Part shown: in pieces, positions 6,960 to 50,201 of the stretch
Numbering within the stretch: the first letter of the stretch is position 1
Layout of the letters: each line of letters starts with the position of its first letter
From: Phoronis australis
Lineage: Eukaryota; Animalia; Phoronida
DNA length: 53,159 nt
Direction: 5' to 3'
NCBI GenBank assembly: GCA_002633005.1
Contig: NMRA01000223.1
Location: forward strand, 163,710 to 216,868
Notes under the pieces: generated by a model
What the model saw: the letters and a program-made list of their open reading frames with translations, nothing else
Database searches by the model: none
What the model was told of the DNA's origin: nothing
Position numbers and translations under genes: made by a program

Positions 6960-7828
6960 AATGTCCAAAAACCACAGGTCAGGTAGAGAAAAATAATACA
7001 TATCCATGTCATCATGCACACAGTGTGTACAGAAATAACCTGAAAAAGAGGTGGATATTTGAAACGTACTCTGTGGATTGTTGCCTGACCTTAGCTATAA
7101 CCACCATCAAGCAACAATGGGAATATTCAGCATTGATTGAGTCCACTGTCACTAATTAACATGTTAGAAAAGAACCCGAACATTACAAATATCATTTTGA
7201 TGTACTATAAGAACACGGAACCTAAGTCAAATATGATCTCAACTATGACATCAAACATTAACTCGACTGCTGGGACGCCTACATCGGCCATCGTCCCCGT
7301 TAACATTCATCTTCGTATTGCACCGTTTTCATGCAATTTCAGTTTCAGTTGGCAGTGCAACTTACATGTACCGGCCCTAAGCCATTTCACCATGACTTTA
7401 AGTGCTCGCAAAATCGTCTCAGAAAAGATCAACCACCACTGAGTAATAAGCGTCACTTCCGTCGTGATAGATGCTTTCTACATTTCCGAAACCTTTGTGA
7501 AGCCTAGCGTCACATGCTGTTTGTGTTTTCCTTGCAGAGAAAAAACCCGGGTGCAAAGTTGACGTGAAAGGAATTAAGTACTATGGTGAAGTTGACCACG
7601 CAAAGACGGGACAACGGTGCAGAGTATGGGATTCACTGGAAGTTCAGAAACACATGTCCAAAAGGAAACGTTTAATTAGATCATTCAAGGGATGGTCCAG
7701 AAAAGTGCAACTTTCAAATTATTGTCGAAATCCGGACTACTCGGAGGTTGGTCCTTGGTGTTATATAGAAGATGAGAATGTACCTTCGTGGCGTGTTTGT
7801 GACATCGAAATGTGTGACGGTAAGTACT
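6960..7828 (+). repeat. Duplicated intron+kringle exon unit, copy 1 (paralogous to ~13765-14581)
   Basis: Shared intronic blocks CACAGGTCA, ATCCATGTCA, AAGAGGTGGATA..TGAAACGTACTCT, AAGATCAACCACCACT, GATGCTTTCTA..CCGAAACCT, then the exon. Confidence 0.85.
7538..7819 (+). CDS. Kringle-domain exon 1 (internal, phase 1-1) of a kringle-containing extracellular protein
   Basis: Acceptor TTTTCCTTGCAG ends at 7537; donor GTAAGT starts at 7820. 282 bp open: KKPGCKVDVKGIKYYG...TGQRCRVW...NYCRNPD...GPWCY...WRVCDIEMCD, with six kringle cysteines. Confidence 0.93.
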
Positions 7829-10680: not shown

Positions 10681-13350
10681 CGTGGATTCCCACGCATATT
10701 TTACTTTTACCCACTACTGAAAGATACATGTACATATAAGGGAAGTTACTCATCAAAAGTACACAGCCCGCGTCTGTAGTAAACTCATCACGAACGCATC
10801 GCTCAGCCACGGAAAGCGGTTGTCCGATACCGTGGTTAGCCAGGTGACCAGTAGCATAACCGGTGAAGAAATACTCGACCAGTCTGCATTTTTAAATCAT
10901 TCTTGGAAATTCTATGTTTTACTTTTGAAAACTTTCTTTACTTGACTGCCAACATCTTGGAATGACATTCCCCCTCTGAACTTTTCTCCGTATGTTCTTA
11001 CACTTTACTGTATGGGACTACATTACTTTCAGCTTTGGCTCACTATTTCTAAGTCCTAGACAGTTTCTTACTACCTTGCCTGCAAAGTATAGCAACTGGA
11101 TTACTAGACTTCGTGGGGGCTGCCTCCGGTCTGGCAACGAGTGACCGTAATCGGACACAGACCGGAGAGTGAGGCGTTTATCGGACGTGGCAAGTGGCGT
11201 GAGCGTAAGCGTGACCTTACAGTGCTCGGTAGGCGTGAACAAAGCGCAAACACCCCGTGAGCCCGGCCTGAGTTTCCCTACCTTCGTTACAACATTAATT
11301 GCTATCCTCAATGATTTAGTGCGACTAGAACAATGTACAGGGTGCTGTCAAATTATCAATAACTGGCATTAAGTCAGTGACTCTATATTTACTGCTAACG
11401 AAACAACATATTTAGCAAAAATATGTCCAGAATAATTGATTGGTTGAATGAAATACTTTACATTAATGGGTTTTATTATTTTACATTTTTTTGTTATATT
11501 TGATGAAAAGTTTACACGTGCATTGTTTCTAATTCACTTTCATCGAAGTAGATCAATGTATTATCCTTTTTAACGAGAAGCTCTACTACCCAAGTAACCC
11601 GTACGTAGGTTTATTTTAGTGAACTAAATAACTATTTTACTCTCTGGTGCCTGCCTTAAAACTCGGGGATAAATTAAACCTCGTCAGGATACAATTTTTA
11701 CACCTGCAATTGATACCTGACACTTGGTATACATGTACATGTACAGTGTGTAACAGACTTATGCCTTCAAAGTAAAAAATCAAATTTGCCAATTTCACCG
11801 ATATTGTAACCGCGTGTTTGCATCCGTATAAAAATTATCCCAAAACGTTGACTGAAAAACACACCGACTGCGAGAAACGTATGACAAACTTCAACAGTGA
11901 AAATAAAAAACACGTCTTACCTACAAACAAACTTTTTCTGTGTAGGCCATTACATCCGCTTGTATTGCCGAGCCGTTAGGTGTTGCCTAAATTTTGTATT
12001 CTAGTCCACATGATTCGGTCATCTATAAAATAAACCAAGGCGAGGTTCTCGGGATAGAAACACGTTATTTGGTTCCATTTCATTTAAATTGATGTGATCA
12101 CTGATGCTTATTTATTTTAGTGGTAGGTGAATAATTCACTAAAGCTACTCCATCATAAGACAATTTAAAAGATTTTAATTTTTAACAAATTGCACATTCC
12201 GTTCCACTCATAATTCCAAATCAAATCTGTGTTAGGGAGTGCATCCGGGGTTTCAAAGGTATCAAATCTTTGAACAGTGTATACTCGGTCATTTTGCCCA
12301 CATCCAGCGTGTCAATTTATTGTGTGAAGCTTGTAATCTAGTTGGAGCTTTGTAGCCAATCCTTCAGAAGTTACTTAACATCATTAGTTTTCTCTATAAG
12401 TCATCTTGAACCTCAAGTATTTCTATTTTTATGATTGTTTTGCACTCTTACTGCATGCAGAATGAACCACAATTATTATATATTTCGTGACAAGACTAAA
12501 TTATCACAACTATTAACGTTCCGCGTAATGTACAGATACTGAATTTCAGCTGCAATTACTTTTGCGTCTGGCTTTATCTTTATCGCATGCCCAACATGCC
12601 TGGATAAATCATGGTATAAAGTGTATGCAGGCTTTTCTCTCAACGGATTGTTCCAAAACCCTCTGAACTCCACACACAATCGACCCACAACCCCCAACCC
12701 AAGACCTGTGGCAATAGATGTTATTTGCGCTTTTTACACATTTCAAAATCATAATGCCTCGCCGAATGACTTTGCCCTAATACTTATCTAACGCAAATCT
12801 GCTCTGGCTCAACTCTCTTGGTTAAAAACAGAAAGTGGTGTAAGGGCATGCCCTGAATCTCCTATATCGAATTGTGAGCGTCCTATCTGGAACAGTTTCA
12901 CTAGCTGCTACCAATGGCCCTGTTCTACTAAACTTAGGGAGAGGGAGCACATTACCGTGAACAAACATATATTCACATGTTTATTATTTCATTTGGTGTT
13001 GTACACTTGTTTACAACATGCTCCATGTTTTCACTTTCCAATTAGGTAACTTGCAGTAAAATAACGTTTAACATAAGTTAACTATTTAACATGCGATTGG
13101 CCAGCTTGACCAATTATCAACAAAACTGTGTACATTCACTTCTCTCGTTGCAGGCATCAACGTCAACGTCTTGAAGTAATGAACTCTCAATGTATCCAAA
13201 GTCAGGGGAATTCATTGACGTGTAACCAGCTGTGTGTCATTACTCCATACTCCTTTTCCACAAAGTCTTTGTGTTGACATATGCAATTTCAGGGTCCGTT
13301 TCGTAAAAGTGATAAGAAACAGAGAAACGTTATTACTCCCCCATTTCAGA

Positions 13351-13806
13351 ATTGCTATGGACAAAACGATTACTACTGTTCTGCCGAAAGTAAAAAGAAT
13401 GCGCGTGAGGCAAATTTAATTATTTGCATCTGTAAGTTGCGGTTCCGGCCCTTAACCCCCAAAAGCACAGGTCAAGTGAAGAAACATGGTATACATNCCA
13501 CCAGAAACAATGCCCTAACAAATCAGCAGTTACCAATGGTCTATCGGTGACACATCCAGACAACCAAGCCAGAGCACCATGGTTCAAATCCTGATAACAG
13601 TAACTTTTTTTAGCAACATTAATAATTTCTAAAATATATAAAATACACTACTATCACAATTGCTGTGGACAAAACGATTACTACTGTTCTGCCGAAAGTA
13701 AAAAGAATGCGCGTGAGGCAAATTTAATTATTTGCATCTGTAAGTTGCGGTTCCGGCCCTTAACCCCCAAAAGCACAGGTCAAGTGAAGAAACATGGTAT
13801 ACATCC
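13351..13806 (+). repeat. ~147-bp near-identical direct repeat (13351-13496 and ~13659-13806) on either side of an N
   Basis: ATTGCT[A/G]TGGACAAAACG...GGTATACAT occurs twice with one visible mismatch; single N at 13497. Confidence 0.9.
13525..13615 (+). mobile_element. tRNA-derived SINE-like head
   Basis: A-box-like TGGTCTATCGG and B-box GGTTCAAATCC, followed by a T-run. Confidence 0.4.
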
Positions 13807-14290
13807 ATGTCACCGTGTAATAGATTACCTGGCAACAAAGGATTTACAGAAATAGCTTAAACAAGAGGTGGATAGCTGAAACGTACTCTTTGGATATTAA
13901 CCTGACCTCACTAATAACCACCCCAAACATTCAGCATTGTTTTATTGCACTCTCACTGATTAACATGTTATTAAAAATTTCGAACATTAATAACATTGTT
14001 TTCACGTACATGCAAGAAAAGATCCCGATACATTCGTCAAATATTATCACAAATATGACACGCCAGCATTCCAGTTATCATGCGTATTAGTATTGCGCCA
14101 TTTTCCCGCAATCTCACTTTCAGCTGACAGTGTAAGTCACCGGCCGTAGGCCATTTAACTATGTCTTAAAATGCTTTCATAATCGAGGCTGCAAGATCAA
14201 CCACCACTAGTAAGCGCGCCTTAACTGATAGTCGATGCTTTCTAGATTACCGAAACCTCTGTCAAATACTAAAGCTTGTTTGGTTTGCAG

Positions 14291-14572
14291 AAACTATCCT
14301 CGGGTGCAAAAATGATGTTAAAGGACTTGACTATAACGGAAAGGGTAACTACGCCAACACGGGGCAAAGCTGCAGGATATGGGACACTGATGACGTTGTG
14401 AACTACATGATAAAAAAAAGACGTCTTTTTGCGTCATATATGAATTGGCCAAGAAACGTGCAACGTTCGAACTTTTGTAGAAATCCGGACCATTGGGAAG
14501 GTGGTCCTTGGTGTTTCATAGAAGATGAACCTGTACCTTCGTGGCGTGCTTGTGACATCAAACTGTGTAATG
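14291..14572 (+). CDS. Kringle-domain exon 2 (internal, phase 1-1)
   Basis: Acceptor TTTGCAG ends at 14290; donor GTAAGT starts at 14573. 282 bp open: TILGCKNDVKGLDYNG...TGQSCRIW...NFCRNPD...GPWCF...WRACDIKLCN; about 52/93 aa identical to exon 1 by manual count. Confidence 0.93.
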
Positions 14573-14740
14573 GTAAGTACTAGCACGCTACAAAAGCAGA
14601 TTTTAAAGCTGAGTAGCTGTGCAGTCTGATTGCATGTACATCAAAAACTTCATTTGGTATTTTTCTGCTGAGGGAGATTCCTATACATATCCGACTTAAA
14701 CATACTATTGAATGATACGTGAAGATACACTGTAGTGCAC

Positions 14741-15205
14741 TTATTGGGGACAAATAAAACAAAAAGAATAATAAATATTTTAAGTTGTGTTGGCAATTTC
14801 AGGGTCACAGCTCTACAAATAAATACTTCACAGACGGAACCAGATGGTTTCCTTAATTACAAGAGATAACACACACATTCCCGATACCCAAAGTGTAATT
14901 GAGTATCGGATACTAAGTGGCACAGGTTAGCATAGTACCAGATGGGTACACAATACCAAATGGGTATTGGCCGATTGCCTACCAACTGGGTCGAGCAAAG
15001 CGGCAAATTCAATAACAAGTACCAAGTGGGTACAAACTGCCAAATGGGCAAATATCATATAAAGTACCAAGTGGGTACACCAAACAGCCAACTGGGTTAT
15101 AACAACCTGCAAAGCAGGTTCCGGACAAGCTGAGTGAGCAGACCAACCGGAGTGATAAAAAGAGATATTGTAAGGAACGTGGTGTTGTGGCTCAGTATGT
15201 GCCCA
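14741..15205. repeat. Repeat A copy 1 (~460 bp), with internal TACCAANTGGGTA motifs
   Basis: Highly similar to 15660-16137. Confidence 0.92.
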
Positions 15206-15452
15206 GGGCTGTGACCGGGGTGGAGAGAAGGAAGCTGCAGTAATGGATGCTCAAGTACATGTCTGGTCGCTAGCCAATGACGTCGGTTCTTCCCTGACGG
15301 TAACACGCTCCGGGCTTGAAGAAGGTGCCAGCAGCGGCTGTAAAAAAACAATAACCAACAGCAGATTTTATTCGGCAAAAGGGATGGAGCGTGGGAAAGG
15401 TAGAAAACGTTGACATAAATTTTTGTGGTACCCCGGGTAGGGAGGGCAGGAG

Positions 15453-15663
15453 AGGTATAAACTTATCTAAATAGGAAAACTTACGAGTGAATGTACTGTT
15501 GCTTGAGGCTGGGCCAACAGGAAGCTGGAGAGAAAGAACAAACAGCGCAACCATCGGACTTGGTAGGAACTAACCACGGGTTGGATATGAAGCATGAAGG
15601 GTTGTATAACGGTATATGGCCAAATAATAGGATTTATGTCAGAGAGCCATCAATCTCATTATT
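15453..15663. repeat. Repeat C copy 1 (~210 bp)
   Basis: Highly similar to 22591-22806 (AGGAAAACTTACGAGTGAATGTACTG...ATCTCATTAT). Confidence 0.92.
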
Positions 15664-16137
15664 CGGGACAACTAAAACAACAAGAATAACATATATTTTA
15701 AGTTGTGTTGGCAATTTCAGGGTCACAGCTCTACAAATAAATGTTTCACAGAAGGAACAAGATGTGTTCCTTAATTACAAGAGATAACACACACATTTCC
15801 GATACCCAAAGTGTAATTGAGTATCAGATACTGAGTGAGTGGCACAGGTTAGCTTAGTACCAAATGGGAACATAATACCAAATGGGTATTGGCCGATTGC
15901 CTACCAACTGGGTCGAGCAAAGCGGCAAATTCAATAACAAGTACCAACTAGGTACAAACTGCCAAATGGGCAAATATCATATAAAGTACCAAGTGGGTAC
16001 ACCAAACAGCCAACTGGGCTATAACAACCTGCAAAGCAGGGCAAAGCAGGTTCCGGACAACCGGAGTGAGCAAACCAGCCGGAGTGATAAAAAGAGACAT
16101 TGTAAGGAACGTGGTGTTGTGGCTCAGTATATGCCAC
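15660..16137. repeat. Repeat A copy 2
   Basis: Matches 14741-15205 and abuts repeat C at a shared TTAT. Confidence 0.92.
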
Positions 16138-22590: not shown

Positions 22591-22806
22591 AGGTATAAGC
22601 CTGTCTAATTAGGAAAACTTACGAGTGAATGTACTGTTTCTTGAGGCTGGGCCAACAGGAAGCTGGAGAGAAAGAACAAACAGCGCAACCATCGGACTTG
22701 GTAGGAACTAACCACGGGTTGGGTATGAAGCATGAAGGGCTTTACTTGTATAACGGTATTTGCCCAAATAATAAGATTTATGTCAGAGTGCCATGGATCT
22801 CATTAT
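22591..22806. repeat. Repeat C copy 2
   Basis: Matches 15453-15663 and ends in CTCATTAT. Confidence 0.92.
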
Positions 22807-22954: not shown

Positions 22955-23548
22955 CTGATGGGCCGTTGGGGGGAAAGTGCTGCCGGAAAAATACGAGCGC
23001 AATTGTGTACATTACGCCGTTATTTACGCCGTTAAGTACGCCGTAAAATAACGAGCGTAATTTAATTTTTACGGCGTCAAATTACGCTCGTAATTTAGTT
23101 TAAACTATGACGTTGGGTTTTACAATCCAAGATCGCGCGCGCTCATGGAAATACTTATTTATTGGCAGGTTTCATGTCTATGATACGAGCACTGAATCAT
23201 GGCGGATCAAATCGCTGCTGCCATGTCAGCGATTGTGCAAGAACGAGCTGCCCAGCAACAGTCGCGTAAGTTAGGTCATCACTGATTGGTTTAAATTTGG
23301 AACGTGCTTAGGCTATTTTACGAGCGTAATTTACAGTGACATTTACCCCATTAAATTTACGGGCGTAATTTTACCGCAACACTTTTGCAGTTTAACTTAC
23401 GCTAGTAATTACGAGCGTAATTTTGCGACGAAACGTTTCACCATTTAATTTACGAGCGTAATTGTACGGCGACACTCCTGCAATTTAATTTACGCTCGTA
23501 ATTACGAGCGTAATTTTACGGCGACACTTTCCCCTCAACGGCCCACCG
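22955..23548. mobile_element. Foldback-type MITE with ~40-bp TIRs and repeated TTACGAGCGTAAT motifs
   Basis: Left TGGGCCGTTGGGGGGAAAGTGCTGCCGGAAAA versus right reverse complement TGGGCCGTTGAGGGGAAAGTGTCGCCGTAAAA; many subterminal TTACG(AG/CT)CGTAA units; TA on the right flank. Confidence 0.85.
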
Positions 23549-46343: not shown

Positions 46344-46519
46344 AACTTACTTTAAACACTTGATGGAACTGCGCCCAACCGTCATCTTCAGTTGGTCTCC
46401 TACTGTCCTTAATGGTTTCGTCCCTAAACCAAGACCATCTCTAGTAGGCGGGACAGCAGAGTTGACCAGGCTCTGCCTGACGGTTGTTGATGGTATTGCT
46501 GTTAGTGCTTCATCCATAT
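46344..46519 (-). repeat. 3' terminal direct repeat of the Hero element
   Basis: Colinear with 50026-50201 (offset 3682), with about ten substitutions. Confidence 0.97.
46376..46486 (-). ncRNA. Candidate permuted/pseudoknotted hammerhead ribozyme (3' copy)
   Basis: Minus strand: CAACCGTCA-GGCAGAG..CTCTGCT-GTCCC-g-CCTACT-agag-ATGGT-C-TTGGT-tta-GGGAC-GAA-ACCAT-taaggac-AGTAGG-ag-ACCAA-CTGAAGA-TGACGGTTG; six complementary helices around an intact core. Confidence 0.7.
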
Positions 46520-49500
46520 CCAACATGATGCCTGTTCAGCTTCGGTGGCCACATCGCGTAGAAGAACCTTGTTTCCTGTCGCAGAGACGCCCAGAGACCT
46601 TGCCATAGCAGTAACCGAGCTGGCCGGAAAACCATGGCAACCAACCTCCACAGAAAAACTCCAACACCTCTAGCCGTTAACGTGGCAGTCACTCCTCAGA
46701 TCAGTATATTTCAGGTTCTTCCGCTCATGAGCCTCTTCTACCATACTCTCCCACGCAATGGTGAGCTCGATCAGGATGATCTGGTGGGAACTGTCCGAAT
46801 AAAGAATAAAGTCAGGGCGCTGGGTAGTCTGGACAATGTGCTGTGGGAAGGATGACTGGTGACCTGCAAGATCAACCCACAATTTCCAGTCGTTTGCTGT
46901 GTGAAGGATGCCTTTTTGCGCTGGTGTCTTCTTCTTACTTGCCTCATCGCCACTTCTTCTGAAACTGATAAATTCGATCCGGTGGCTTCTTGACTTTGGT
47001 TTACTCTTGACTTCGTCAACCAACACCCTTGCGAAAACTTTCAGTACCTGTTTGTGTCGGTAGGTGTACTTTCCTGATGCCAAAGACGCGCTGCAAGATG
47101 ACAGAATGTGTTCTAAAGAACATCTGCGTACACACTGAATACAGCTCGGGTTGTCAGTGAACCTCAAATAGCAAGGTTGCTGGGAGTAGGCAGTACGTCA
47201 TAAACAGATCTGATGAGAAACTTTGCTTTCAAAGGCGACATCTTCCACAAGTCCGCCCACTTTATTTCCCTTTGCAAGACTTTGTCCCACTTCGTCCACG
47301 CCCCCTGCTGACCCATCTGAACTGCTCGGGCATACCTTCCTTCGTTCTCTGACAATCTAACTTCTCTGATTATTCTGTCTCTGTCTGGTTTTTAAGTCTC
47401 TCCCTTGCTGGATTCCCGGTCTTGTATCCCAGTCCTTGCCTACCTTGGCAAGCACTTCATATTAGTTGCTTGTGCCTCAGCCGGCTTTCTGCTTCGCTGA
47501 TTGCCGACGTGGTGGACCACTTACTGCCGGTACGTGACTGGGTGATGCAACCACTGATAGCCTGGTCAGATGTATGCCGCAGAGTGATACTGGCTCGCAC
47601 TTTGGTAACTTTATATTCCTCCACCACAGATGAGACCGGTAGAACGAGTTTCGATGACTTGCTGAATGATGCAGGTAGACCAAGCCACCTTCGAATGAAC
47701 CGGCTCGCTGTTCTTTCCATTTCCTCAGCTGAAGACGATGTGACGTCGTAGATTAACAGTGGTCACATAAGCTTCGGGAGCAAGATGAACTGGTAGCACC
47801 AAAGCTTGAATCTTCCGGGTATGCCGTCTTTGTCGATCTTCTCAAGCCAAGCCTTGAGCTGGGCTTTCACATCCTTGACACGGGATGTGTCTCGTAGGCT
47901 GCTATCATAGTACTTGCCAAGGCACTTGACTGGTTGTTCACTTATTGTTGGAATTCTGCAACCTGCTATCGAAAACGTCTGTCTCTTGAGCAACACGCCT
48001 CTGTTGATAATTAGTGATCTGGACTTCTCTGCCTTGAATGACAAACAGGCCCATTTAGTGAGCTCTTCTAGGCAACGGAGAATTGTTCTGGCTCCCACTG
48101 GTGACACTGTCACAATTGTAATGTCGTCAACAAAAGCTCTACATGACGGCTGTCTGACTTCATCTAGCTTGGGACCTCTTCGTTCGGAGTGGGCTGTCTT
48201 CAGCTGGACATTCATTGCCATGATAAACAGGATGACTGAAATGGTACAGCCCGTCATAACTCCTTTTTCAAGGTGTTGCCACTTCGTAGTGAAGTTGCCG
48301 ACCGTGAAACTCATCAAACAGGAGCTATAGTATGACTTCACTATACTCTAGACTTTCTCAGGAATGTGGTAGATGTCCATGGGACGATAAACTGATACAT
48401 GTGGTACCGAGCCGTACGCATTTGCCATGTCGAGCCACACCATAGACAGATTCTTCTTGCCCTTCTTCGCTCGGTGTATGAGTTCACTTATGATAGAATT
48501 ATGTTCCAGGCATCCAGAAAAGACTGGTACCCCGCCTTTCTGTGAAGATGTGTCAATATACTTGTTCTTGATCATGAAGTCTGTCATTCTGCCGGATAGG
48601 ATTGCTAAGTAGATCTTTCCTTCCACGCTAAGCAGTGAAATTGGTCGAAACTTGCTAATCTGCTTCGAGCCTTCTTCTTTCGGAACATAAACCCCTTCAG
48701 CTCGCCCGCACTGGGCTGGAACTACGCCCTTCCTCCAGAGGATCTTAAACAGCTTCCAGAGCCTTTTCTCAACTTGGGACACATCTTATAGACCATGTAG
48801 GAAATTCTACTTGGACCAGGGGCTGACCCCGATCGGGCTTTCTTCACAGTGCTATCCACTTCTGACTTTTTAATGTCCCCCAGATCAAAACCTTCGTCTG
48901 GTAGATCTTCAGCCTCTTGACCCGGAAAGTCGCCAAGGGGAGTATCTTTCAACTCATCGCTGTGAATTTTGGCAAGGTGCTTCTCCAACACTGCCCGGGT
49001 GCACGTAAGTGTTCCGCTTTTGCTCTTGCCTAAAGCCCTGAAGCATACTGATAGGGGTTCTTAATGAATTTCTCTCTCTGCCTTGACCGCTTCTTCCTAT
49101 TTTGTGCACCTCGTTAAGCTTTGCGGAGGGACAATAGTCGCTTGCGGGCCTCAGATGTCAGGTGAGTTATTCCTGCTTTTTCGTGCTCAGCTGCACTCTT
49201 CCACAGGCGACGGAGTTCTCTAAGCTCTCTGCGGATAGTTGCTATTTCCCGTTGTCGTCTGTTTGGTCCTCGTGGGTTTGATGTTTCCTTTCTTTTCTCT
49301 ACTGTTCCAAAGCGGTCCACACTGACTTGGTAAACAATCCTAGTCATAGCCTCAATCTTTGTCTCAGCTGGACCTCGAAGAGTGACACGTAAGATGCTAT
49401 CCAGATCATCGTCTAAGGCTGACCACGCCTTCTTATCAGCTGCTGGTGGCCACTTGATTCGATCCTTCTTTGCAGTATCTGGTGGGCCTGCTGAACTGGC

Positions 49501-49812
49501 TGGAACTGGATTCTGAAATACTTCAGCTTCTACTACTAATGCTTCCATCCGATGCGTAGCTGGGAGGTCTTCTGCACTGTGGTTTGAGACCTGGCTCAAT
49601 CCCTCGCCCGTCTCACTCGACGTGGCGCCCAAGCGTTGCCTTGCGACCTGACGTAAGCACTTAATCTTTCCTTGGTGGATCTTCAACCCTCTTAAATTCT
49701 TTAGAATCTTTCCACACACACAGGTTCTTGATGCTAAATCGGTGTTCGTAATCGTAGTCCTATTCGGTCCGGTCGTTGCCGTTGGAGGTCTGTCGTTGGA
49801 CTCTTCTTGCAT
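46502..49812 (-). pseudogene. Hero ORF (ZnF-RT-CCHC-RLE), disrupted by frameshifts and stops
   Basis: Consecutive minus ORF fragments 49114-49812, 48722-48991, 48348-48782, 47763-48341, 47457-47720, 47164-47355, 46670-47167; ends ...EAEQASCWIWMKH* at 46502. Confidence 0.9.
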
Positions 49813-49868
49813 CCTCCCTCTCTGAGAGTCCTGAGGTTGTCTTTCTGGTAATTTGGATGTAGCAATAT

Positions 49869-49991
49869 GGATGGGTGTGTCCTCGCGAACACTTCAAACT
49901 GACAGCTAATCCGAGCTGAACCCGATGCTGTCTTTCCACGCTGTCATCAGTCTCTCCCGATGTCCCTTGTCTTTCCAAGTGTCACCCATCC
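49869..49991 (-). ncRNA. Structured 5' UTR element of Hero with twin UGGAAAGACA motifs
   Basis: Nested complements GGATGGGTG/CACCCATCC, ACACTT/AAGTGT and TGACAGC/GCTGTCA; TGGAAAGACA twice on minus. Confidence 0.5.
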
Positions 49992-50025
49992 TATTCATGG
50001 AAGTCACGGCTTTGCCGATAACAAG

Positions 50026-50197
50026 AACTTACTTTAAACACTTGACGGAACTGTGCTCAACCGTCATCTTCAGTTGGTCTCCTACTGTCCTTAATGGTTT
50101 CGTCCCTAAACCAAGACCATCTCTAGTAGGCGGGACAACAGAGTTGATCAGGCTCTGCCTGAGAGTTGTTGATGGTATTGCTGTTGGTGCTTCATCC

Positions 50198-50201
<4 letters not shown>
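50026..50201 (-). repeat. 5' terminal direct repeat of the Hero element
   Basis: Copy of 46344-46519, including the last codons of the ORF. Confidence 0.97.
50058..50168 (-). ncRNA. Candidate permuted/pseudoknotted hammerhead ribozyme (5' copy)
   Basis: Core and inner helices identical to the 3' copy; two mismatches in the outer 9-bp helix. Confidence 0.65.

Follow-up and report, generated by a model that had tools for sequence, protein, structure and literature searches.

The 53,159-nt stretch of Phoronis australis DNA analysed here (the window) carries on its minus strand a decayed retrotransposon whose two ends repeat one another, and both repeat copies include the motifs of a hammerhead ribozyme in an unusual order. 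The locus raises the question of whether these motifs belong to a ribozyme and, if so, what a ribozyme at both ends would contribute to the replication of such an element. The element and its parts are as follows.

46344..50201, minus strand: remains of a Hero-like RLE non-LTR retrotransposon with one ORF, 3858 nt, flanked by (TA)n tracts
46344..46519, minus strand: terminal direct repeat, 3' copy, 176 nt, comprising the ORF end and 3' UTR
50026..50201, minus strand: terminal direct repeat, 5' copy, starting ~86 nt upstream of the predicted cut
47766..48782, minus strand: reverse transcriptase domain, split into two segments free of stops, with Pfam RVT_1 matches at E 2.7e-09 and 2.1e-07
46673..47197, minus strand: translation with a CCHC knuckle and the first part of a restriction-like endonuclease domain (RPD...IELT); homologues at 42-58%

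The element has the composition of an RLE non-LTR retrotransposon, namely a single ORF (interrupted here by stops and frameshifts) with a reverse transcriptase, a CCHC knuckle, and a PD..D/E endonuclease. Its protein homologues occur in fish, lancelet, and molluscs, and the label Hero-like comes from a sequence-only reading of this DNA and from this host range, no labelled HERO protein being among the homologues listed. Both ends adjoin (TA)n, and the 5' repeat copy starts at an ATAT common to the repeat and its (TA)n flank. The repeat copies are 95% identical and lie 3682 nt apart, with none of their 8 internal substitutions falling in the hammerhead core, stems I-III, or the pseudoknot that joins stems I and II. 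Further repeats of 93-300 nt, dispersed or in tandem, are found elsewhere in the window (13346-13804, 14741-16135, 15453-15662 / 22591-22806, 7524-7823 / 14277-14576, and 23343-23528) and are probably unrelated mobile elements. A separate signal was observed at 48494-49021, where reads from two RNA runs, X5 and X6, reach a depth of 200-250 in a single orientation and loose ends occur at 48510 and 49003; this is a fragment of the element family inside a well-expressed host transcript.

The sequence-only reading had placed hammerhead motifs and a set of accompanying helices on the minus strand of 46486-46376, and all of them were located there.

46376..46486, minus strand: 3' copy of the predicted SGC-type hammerhead with split core, in which every pair and the core are intact; 99 bits under a covariance model for which it was itself a training sequence
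50058..50168, minus strand: predicted hammerhead, 5' copy, P0 with one mismatch and one wobble, predicted cut 50115/50114
46486-46478 / 46384-46376, minus strand: P0, the closing helix, 9 bp, its 3' strand directly after A9; 9/9 pairs with double-sided change
46477-46471 / 46461-46455 (whole 46455..46477), minus strand: inserted hairpin, 7 bp
46454-46450 / 46424-46420, minus strand: stem II (GUCCC/GGGAC), G10.1 at 46454, with covariation; a rival partner fails
46448-46443 / 46404-46399, minus strand: pseudoknot, the joining helix, which connects stems I and II at their distal ends as in type-SGC
46439-46434 / 46416-46411, minus strand: stem III, with covariation
46432-46428 / 46396-46392, minus strand: stem I, with covariation
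46428..46439, minus strand: site block of stem III 5' strand, C17 (46433), and stem I 5' strand, predicted cut 46433/46432
46411..46424, minus strand: stem II 3' strand, G12-A13-A14 (GAA, 46419-46417), and stem III 3' strand, with core conservation
46385..46396, minus strand: stem I 3' strand and CUGAAGA (C3-A9, 46391-46385), with core conservation

The core positions C3-A9 (CUGAnGA), G12-A14, and A15.1-U16.1 are intact in both window copies. As claimed, the strand order lies outside hammerhead types I-III, which are circular permutations of a nested three-way junction, since here the stems cross, and standard models miss the fold: Rfam yielded no match to a hammerhead up to E=10. Single-strand folding of 46376-46486, a procedure for which knots are out of reach, gave a z of -3.6 and a different fold. 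We also observed that the hairpin pair 46476 / 46456 is G-C in the 3' copy and G-U in most family contigs, with a partner change towards A-U in a subset of them.

We next turned to relatives of the element, using 87 loci chosen by C-terminal protein similarity alone, of which 79 came from metagenome contigs (among the best 80 of 427 confirmed matches) and 8 from genome contigs. A descriptor consisting of the core, stems I, II, and III, the joining helix, and P0 (five helices, with the inserted hairpin excluded) matched both window copies and 40/85 loci; L084 and L091, which have no usable downstream DNA, stand outside this count. Its controls yielded 0/870 shuffles, 0/87 reverse complements, and 1/390 upstream windows, and that single match is a true second copy in L019. 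A covariance model trained on 29 sequences yielded 63 matches, all on the coding strand, with 2 in the window and 61 in 57/87 loci, 27 of those 57 being training loci. L061 and L062 passed the descriptor and failed the covariance model. On a quick tree, 55/62 main-clade rows have a model match vs 0/12 in the most distant clade, and 4 of the 7 main-clade misses are on contigs that end within 140 nt of the ORF match. The related retrotransposon ORFs of L084-L091 were found on short contigs of prokaryote genome bins and are probably eukaryotic contamination. Viral contigs were also considered as carriers; their 4 pattern matches were read as chance coding sequence, and they had 0 matches to a second pattern and no protein relatives.

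In a sequence-only MAFFT alignment of 29 sequences, 89.4% of 1084 cells were paired and 34/38 pairs exhibited double-sided change, while controls slid along the same alignment paired in 38-45% of cells. Since 28 of the 29 rows had been picked by a descriptor needing five of six helices, two cleaner tests carry more weight. The inserted hairpin, which is outside the descriptor, covaries at 7/7 pairs. Stems I and II, when absent from the covariance model, were examined in 20 held-out sequences of <80% identity to the training set, where stem I paired in 95/99 cells and stem II in 81/98, vs 29-59 when slid. The sequence-only reading had called for core and helix conservation among relatives, and indeed each proposed helix covaries across divergent elements (43 non-redundant motifs share on average 47% pairwise identity) and the core is conserved. 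Among 58 full-length matches, U16.1, A13, A14, A15.1, U4, G5, and A9 are invariant, G12 and A6 are each retained in 57, G8 in 56, C3 in 55, and G10.1 and C11.1 in 53 each, while N7 varies. The known rule for hammerheads is cleavage after C, U, or A at position 17 and not after G. The same 58 matches have C in 23, U in 18, A in 16, and G in 1 at this position, and we take the overall pattern of conservation to be that of hammerheads. The repeat holds a real, conserved RNA structure, and judging from its sequence features we consider it very probable that the ribozyme of this family cleaves RNA.

What kind of hammerhead this would be is best seen by comparison with type-SGC (HRIMA-1 and the SGC variant; Eckert et al. 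2023, PMC10085705), whose RNAs cleave in vitro and whose knotted order was reported from environmental RNA. Type-SGC and the present fold have in common the order of site, GAAA, and CUGAnGA, the crossing of stems I-III, an identical core, a short linker from stem I to stem II (typically 3 nt, often UUA), and a helix that connects stems I and II distally. The strand order, for which the sequence-only reading knew of no description, is that of the published type-SGC. The two differ in the placement of stem II. In type-SGC, its 5' strand comes right after CUGAnGA or is separated from it by a single U, whereas here the 5' strand of stem II and a strand of the joining helix lie upstream, with P0 and the inserted hairpin in between, and no stem II strand occurs within 1-2 nt after CUGAnGA. 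The published analysis assumed that the CUGAnGA block (block C) is uninterruptible by more than 1-2 nt, and a one-base insert at the A9/G10.1 step was tolerated in the published SGC variant (PMC10085705). A direct SGC stem II after CUGAnGA was considered for our sequences and rejected: with one bulged base, 50% of cells were paired vs 46.5% in shuffled sequences, with none the value was 44%, and the runs were just 0-2 bp in 36/42 descriptor matches.

The multi-helix junction that had been proposed is present, but it does not replace stem II as was supposed, because stem II is present as GUCCC/GGGAC and has the G10.1-C11.1 pair conserved. The joins from A9 to P0, from P0 to the hairpin, and from the hairpin to G10.1 are all immediate, with covarying pairs at each (columns 23-133, 24-52, and 53-95). 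Therefore, the fold appears as an SGC circle that has been opened at A9/G10.1 and closed by a four-way junction without spacer bases. If P0 were stacked on the hairpin, A9 would be placed beside G10.1. We did not find this putative split-core knotted hammerhead described, nor any hammerhead in HERO or split at A9/G10.1, in a literature search that left most subscription papers and Repbase Reports outside its scope.

The loop of the inserted hairpin has a feature of its own. Its hexamer is UGAUCA in the 5' copy (50150-50145) and in nearly all family contigs compared, while the 3' copy has the wobble form UGGUCA (46468-46463). Watson-Crick palindromic hexamers occupy this loop in 22/43 non-redundant motifs, vs a mean of 4.9 and a maximum of 12 for shuffled loops, and 22 of 33 aligned hexamers are palindromes (UGAUCA 13, UGGCCA 7, UGUACA 1, UCAUGA 1) vs 9.8 with halves shuffled; both kinds of shuffle ignore the relatedness of the elements. 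UGGCCA occurs on at least 2 separate branches of the quick tree. The stop codon was rejected as a source of the loop UGA, the first in-frame stop being inside the loop in just 5/55. The self-complementary hexamer with its compensatory changes could possibly be a kissing-loop dimer site, and because about half of the motifs, whole lineages among them, have no palindromic loop, this hypothesis applies to one large subgroup. In L016 and L024, the inserted hairpin has a longer insert, of ~32 nt, with a different palindrome (GGAUCC).

Where the motif lies relative to the ORF and the element ends bears upon its possible function. The predicted cut is downstream of the first in-frame stop in 53/55 cases, by 34-601 nt, so cleavage would keep the ORF whole. 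The element 3' end lies 89 nt past the predicted cut in the window and at a similar position in L005. Five contigs (L005, L010, L018, L032, and L043) start with the hammerhead motif, and in eight of the 49 loci with at least 500 nt downstream (L007, L008, L014, L017, L021, L022, L023, and L037) the ORF end, the motif, and the next ORF start are found within 470 nt. With the exception of L019, the head-to-tail contigs may result from assembly loops. In L019:1-5743, two elements are joined head to tail, and the ribozyme of each is intact and differently paired. The two are just 80% identical, with compensatory P0 changes, and an assembler would not be expected to collapse them; their junction suggests either template switching between families or insertion at the end of another element. 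A short array follows the 5' repeat.

49926..49989, minus strand: three TGAC-N3-7-GGAAAGAC-like units of ~20 nt each, immediately past the 5' repeat

Arrays of 2-6 such units are present in the window, L007, L017, L022, L023, and others. We counted 51 units in 16 of 17 regions (the regions having been picked by eye), directly past the 3'-end site, and across all loci the pattern occurs 166 times on coding strands vs 45 times on opposite strands. The flanks of the units exhibit no reliable pairing (24-30/51 per position). The array may serve for binding of the RT or another protein, or as a promoter.

The observations made directly, namely the fold, its covariation, the conserved core, the position past the stop codon, and the presence at both ends, are the basis for the reading that we prefer, to which we assign a probability of roughly 0.55: the hammerhead would cut the element's RNA after GUC in each repeat, and the RNA of unit length would serve, joined or circular, as the template for copying. 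A 3682-nt RNA containing the whole ORF would be released by Mg2+-dependent cleavage at 46433/46432 and 50115/50114. Four helices (P0, stem II, the joining helix, and stem III) would hold the two ends of this RNA together, so that they could be re-ligated or crossed by a template jump. Target-primed reverse transcription would then begin inside this RNA, at a point 89 nt beyond the cut that lies immediately before the TGAC..GGAAAGAC array. Copying once round plus a little, with a stop at microhomology, would produce terminal repeats whose length varies, or else copies arranged head to tail. For the repeat in the window, such over-copying would end at the ATAT microhomology. A fuller version is more tentative and, in our estimate, rather doubtful as a whole. 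In this version, Hero-type LINEs would employ a circular or end-joined RNA made via a hammerhead split at A9/G10.1, with its ends clamped by the four-way junction and with the palindromic loop dimerising two RNAs or two repeats, like a retroviral kissing loop, so as to allow template exchange.

The RNA and contig data bear upon several readings at once. In the X5 and X6 runs (same species label; 18-19% of each run, depth ~25-50, diverged copies), no pile-up of read ends was seen at the predicted cut, which reads cross in both orientations, and no circle junction was seen. Contig depth, which is not copy number, declines inwards from the 3' end with no step at the cut. Loose ends of DNA contigs are scattered, with none at the cut among the rows listed (15 of 56), which fits a joined and an uncut template alike. 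An active ribozyme could indeed coexist with insertion from uncut multimeric or read-through RNA by internal priming, in which case the role of cutting would be in the release or translation of mRNA, with the repeats arising from partial tandem copies. A Penelope element with internal initiation is reported to use mainly uncut RNA as its insertion substrate and to have no cut-site read ends (PMC11167929), much as the present reads have none, and it is for this reason that we give the uncut template a substantial but minority share of the probability. The hetero-tandem in L019 and a report of ribozyme-linked translation (PMC13725137) point the same way. However, repeats formed in this manner would shrink every generation unless tandems were rebuilt, and four helices clamping the cut ends would suit joining.

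The absence of read ends at the predicted cut would also be expected of a non-catalytic RNA structure, such as one to which the RT protein binds, with a mere resemblance to a hammerhead. Structures in the R2 3' UTR bind protein (PMC12222951), and we found no experimentally supported precedent for a break at A9/G10.1. Yet the invariant positions are precisely those of the hammerhead core, and position 17 is C, U, or A with G avoided in 57/58, leaving this explanation very improbable. R2 also furnishes a precedent for a ribozyme that trims just the 5' end of the transcript, as its HDV-type ribozyme does (PMC3774820), and here the motif is found immediately before the 5' UTR in full-length contigs; a 3' copy would then seldom cut. 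We regard this as improbable, because the 5' copy in the window starts 86 nt before the cut, and a linear template trimmed at its 5' end could not provide this sequence, no cluster of 5' ends occurs at the cut among the rows listed, and the motif is retained at the 3' end.

The joined or circular template that we favor has partial parallels in several known systems. Penelope-like elements are similarly partial-tandem with a hammerhead in the repeated end (pseudo-LTRs; PMC11167929, PMC4209133), and the element end is inside the template unit (PMC11167929), but they belong to another RT lineage with a GIY-YIG nuclease and have type I, often minimal, hammerheads (bioRxiv 10.64898/2026.07.22.740005). 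In retrozymes, two ribozyme copies release a circularising unit RNA, as proposed here, although these are small and non-autonomous with type I or III hammerheads (bioRxiv 10.64898/2026.07.22.740005; PMC4918200). R2 and other LINEs with HDV-like ribozymes share the RLE-type protein and a self-cleavage tied to element ends, whereas the ribozyme is of a different class, is described there at the 5' end only, and comes with no terminal repeat (PMC3774820). Members of the HERO clade likewise have a single ORF with RT and RLE, and some families target microsatellites (PMC4640811); the difference is that no ribozyme report was found for HERO in the literature searched.

If the predicted fold is active, the published assumption of an uninterruptible CUGAnGA would be broken, and the split form would constitute a further natural hammerhead architecture, one that is missed by current models. 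The knotted SGC order is now placed in a widespread clade of animal retrotransposons. If the replication route is true as well, an R2-related LINE would have a joined or circular RNA route like that of Penelope elements or retrozymes, which would explain both the terminal repeats and the tandems, and the fold would bear upon the engineering of RLE elements for gene insertion.
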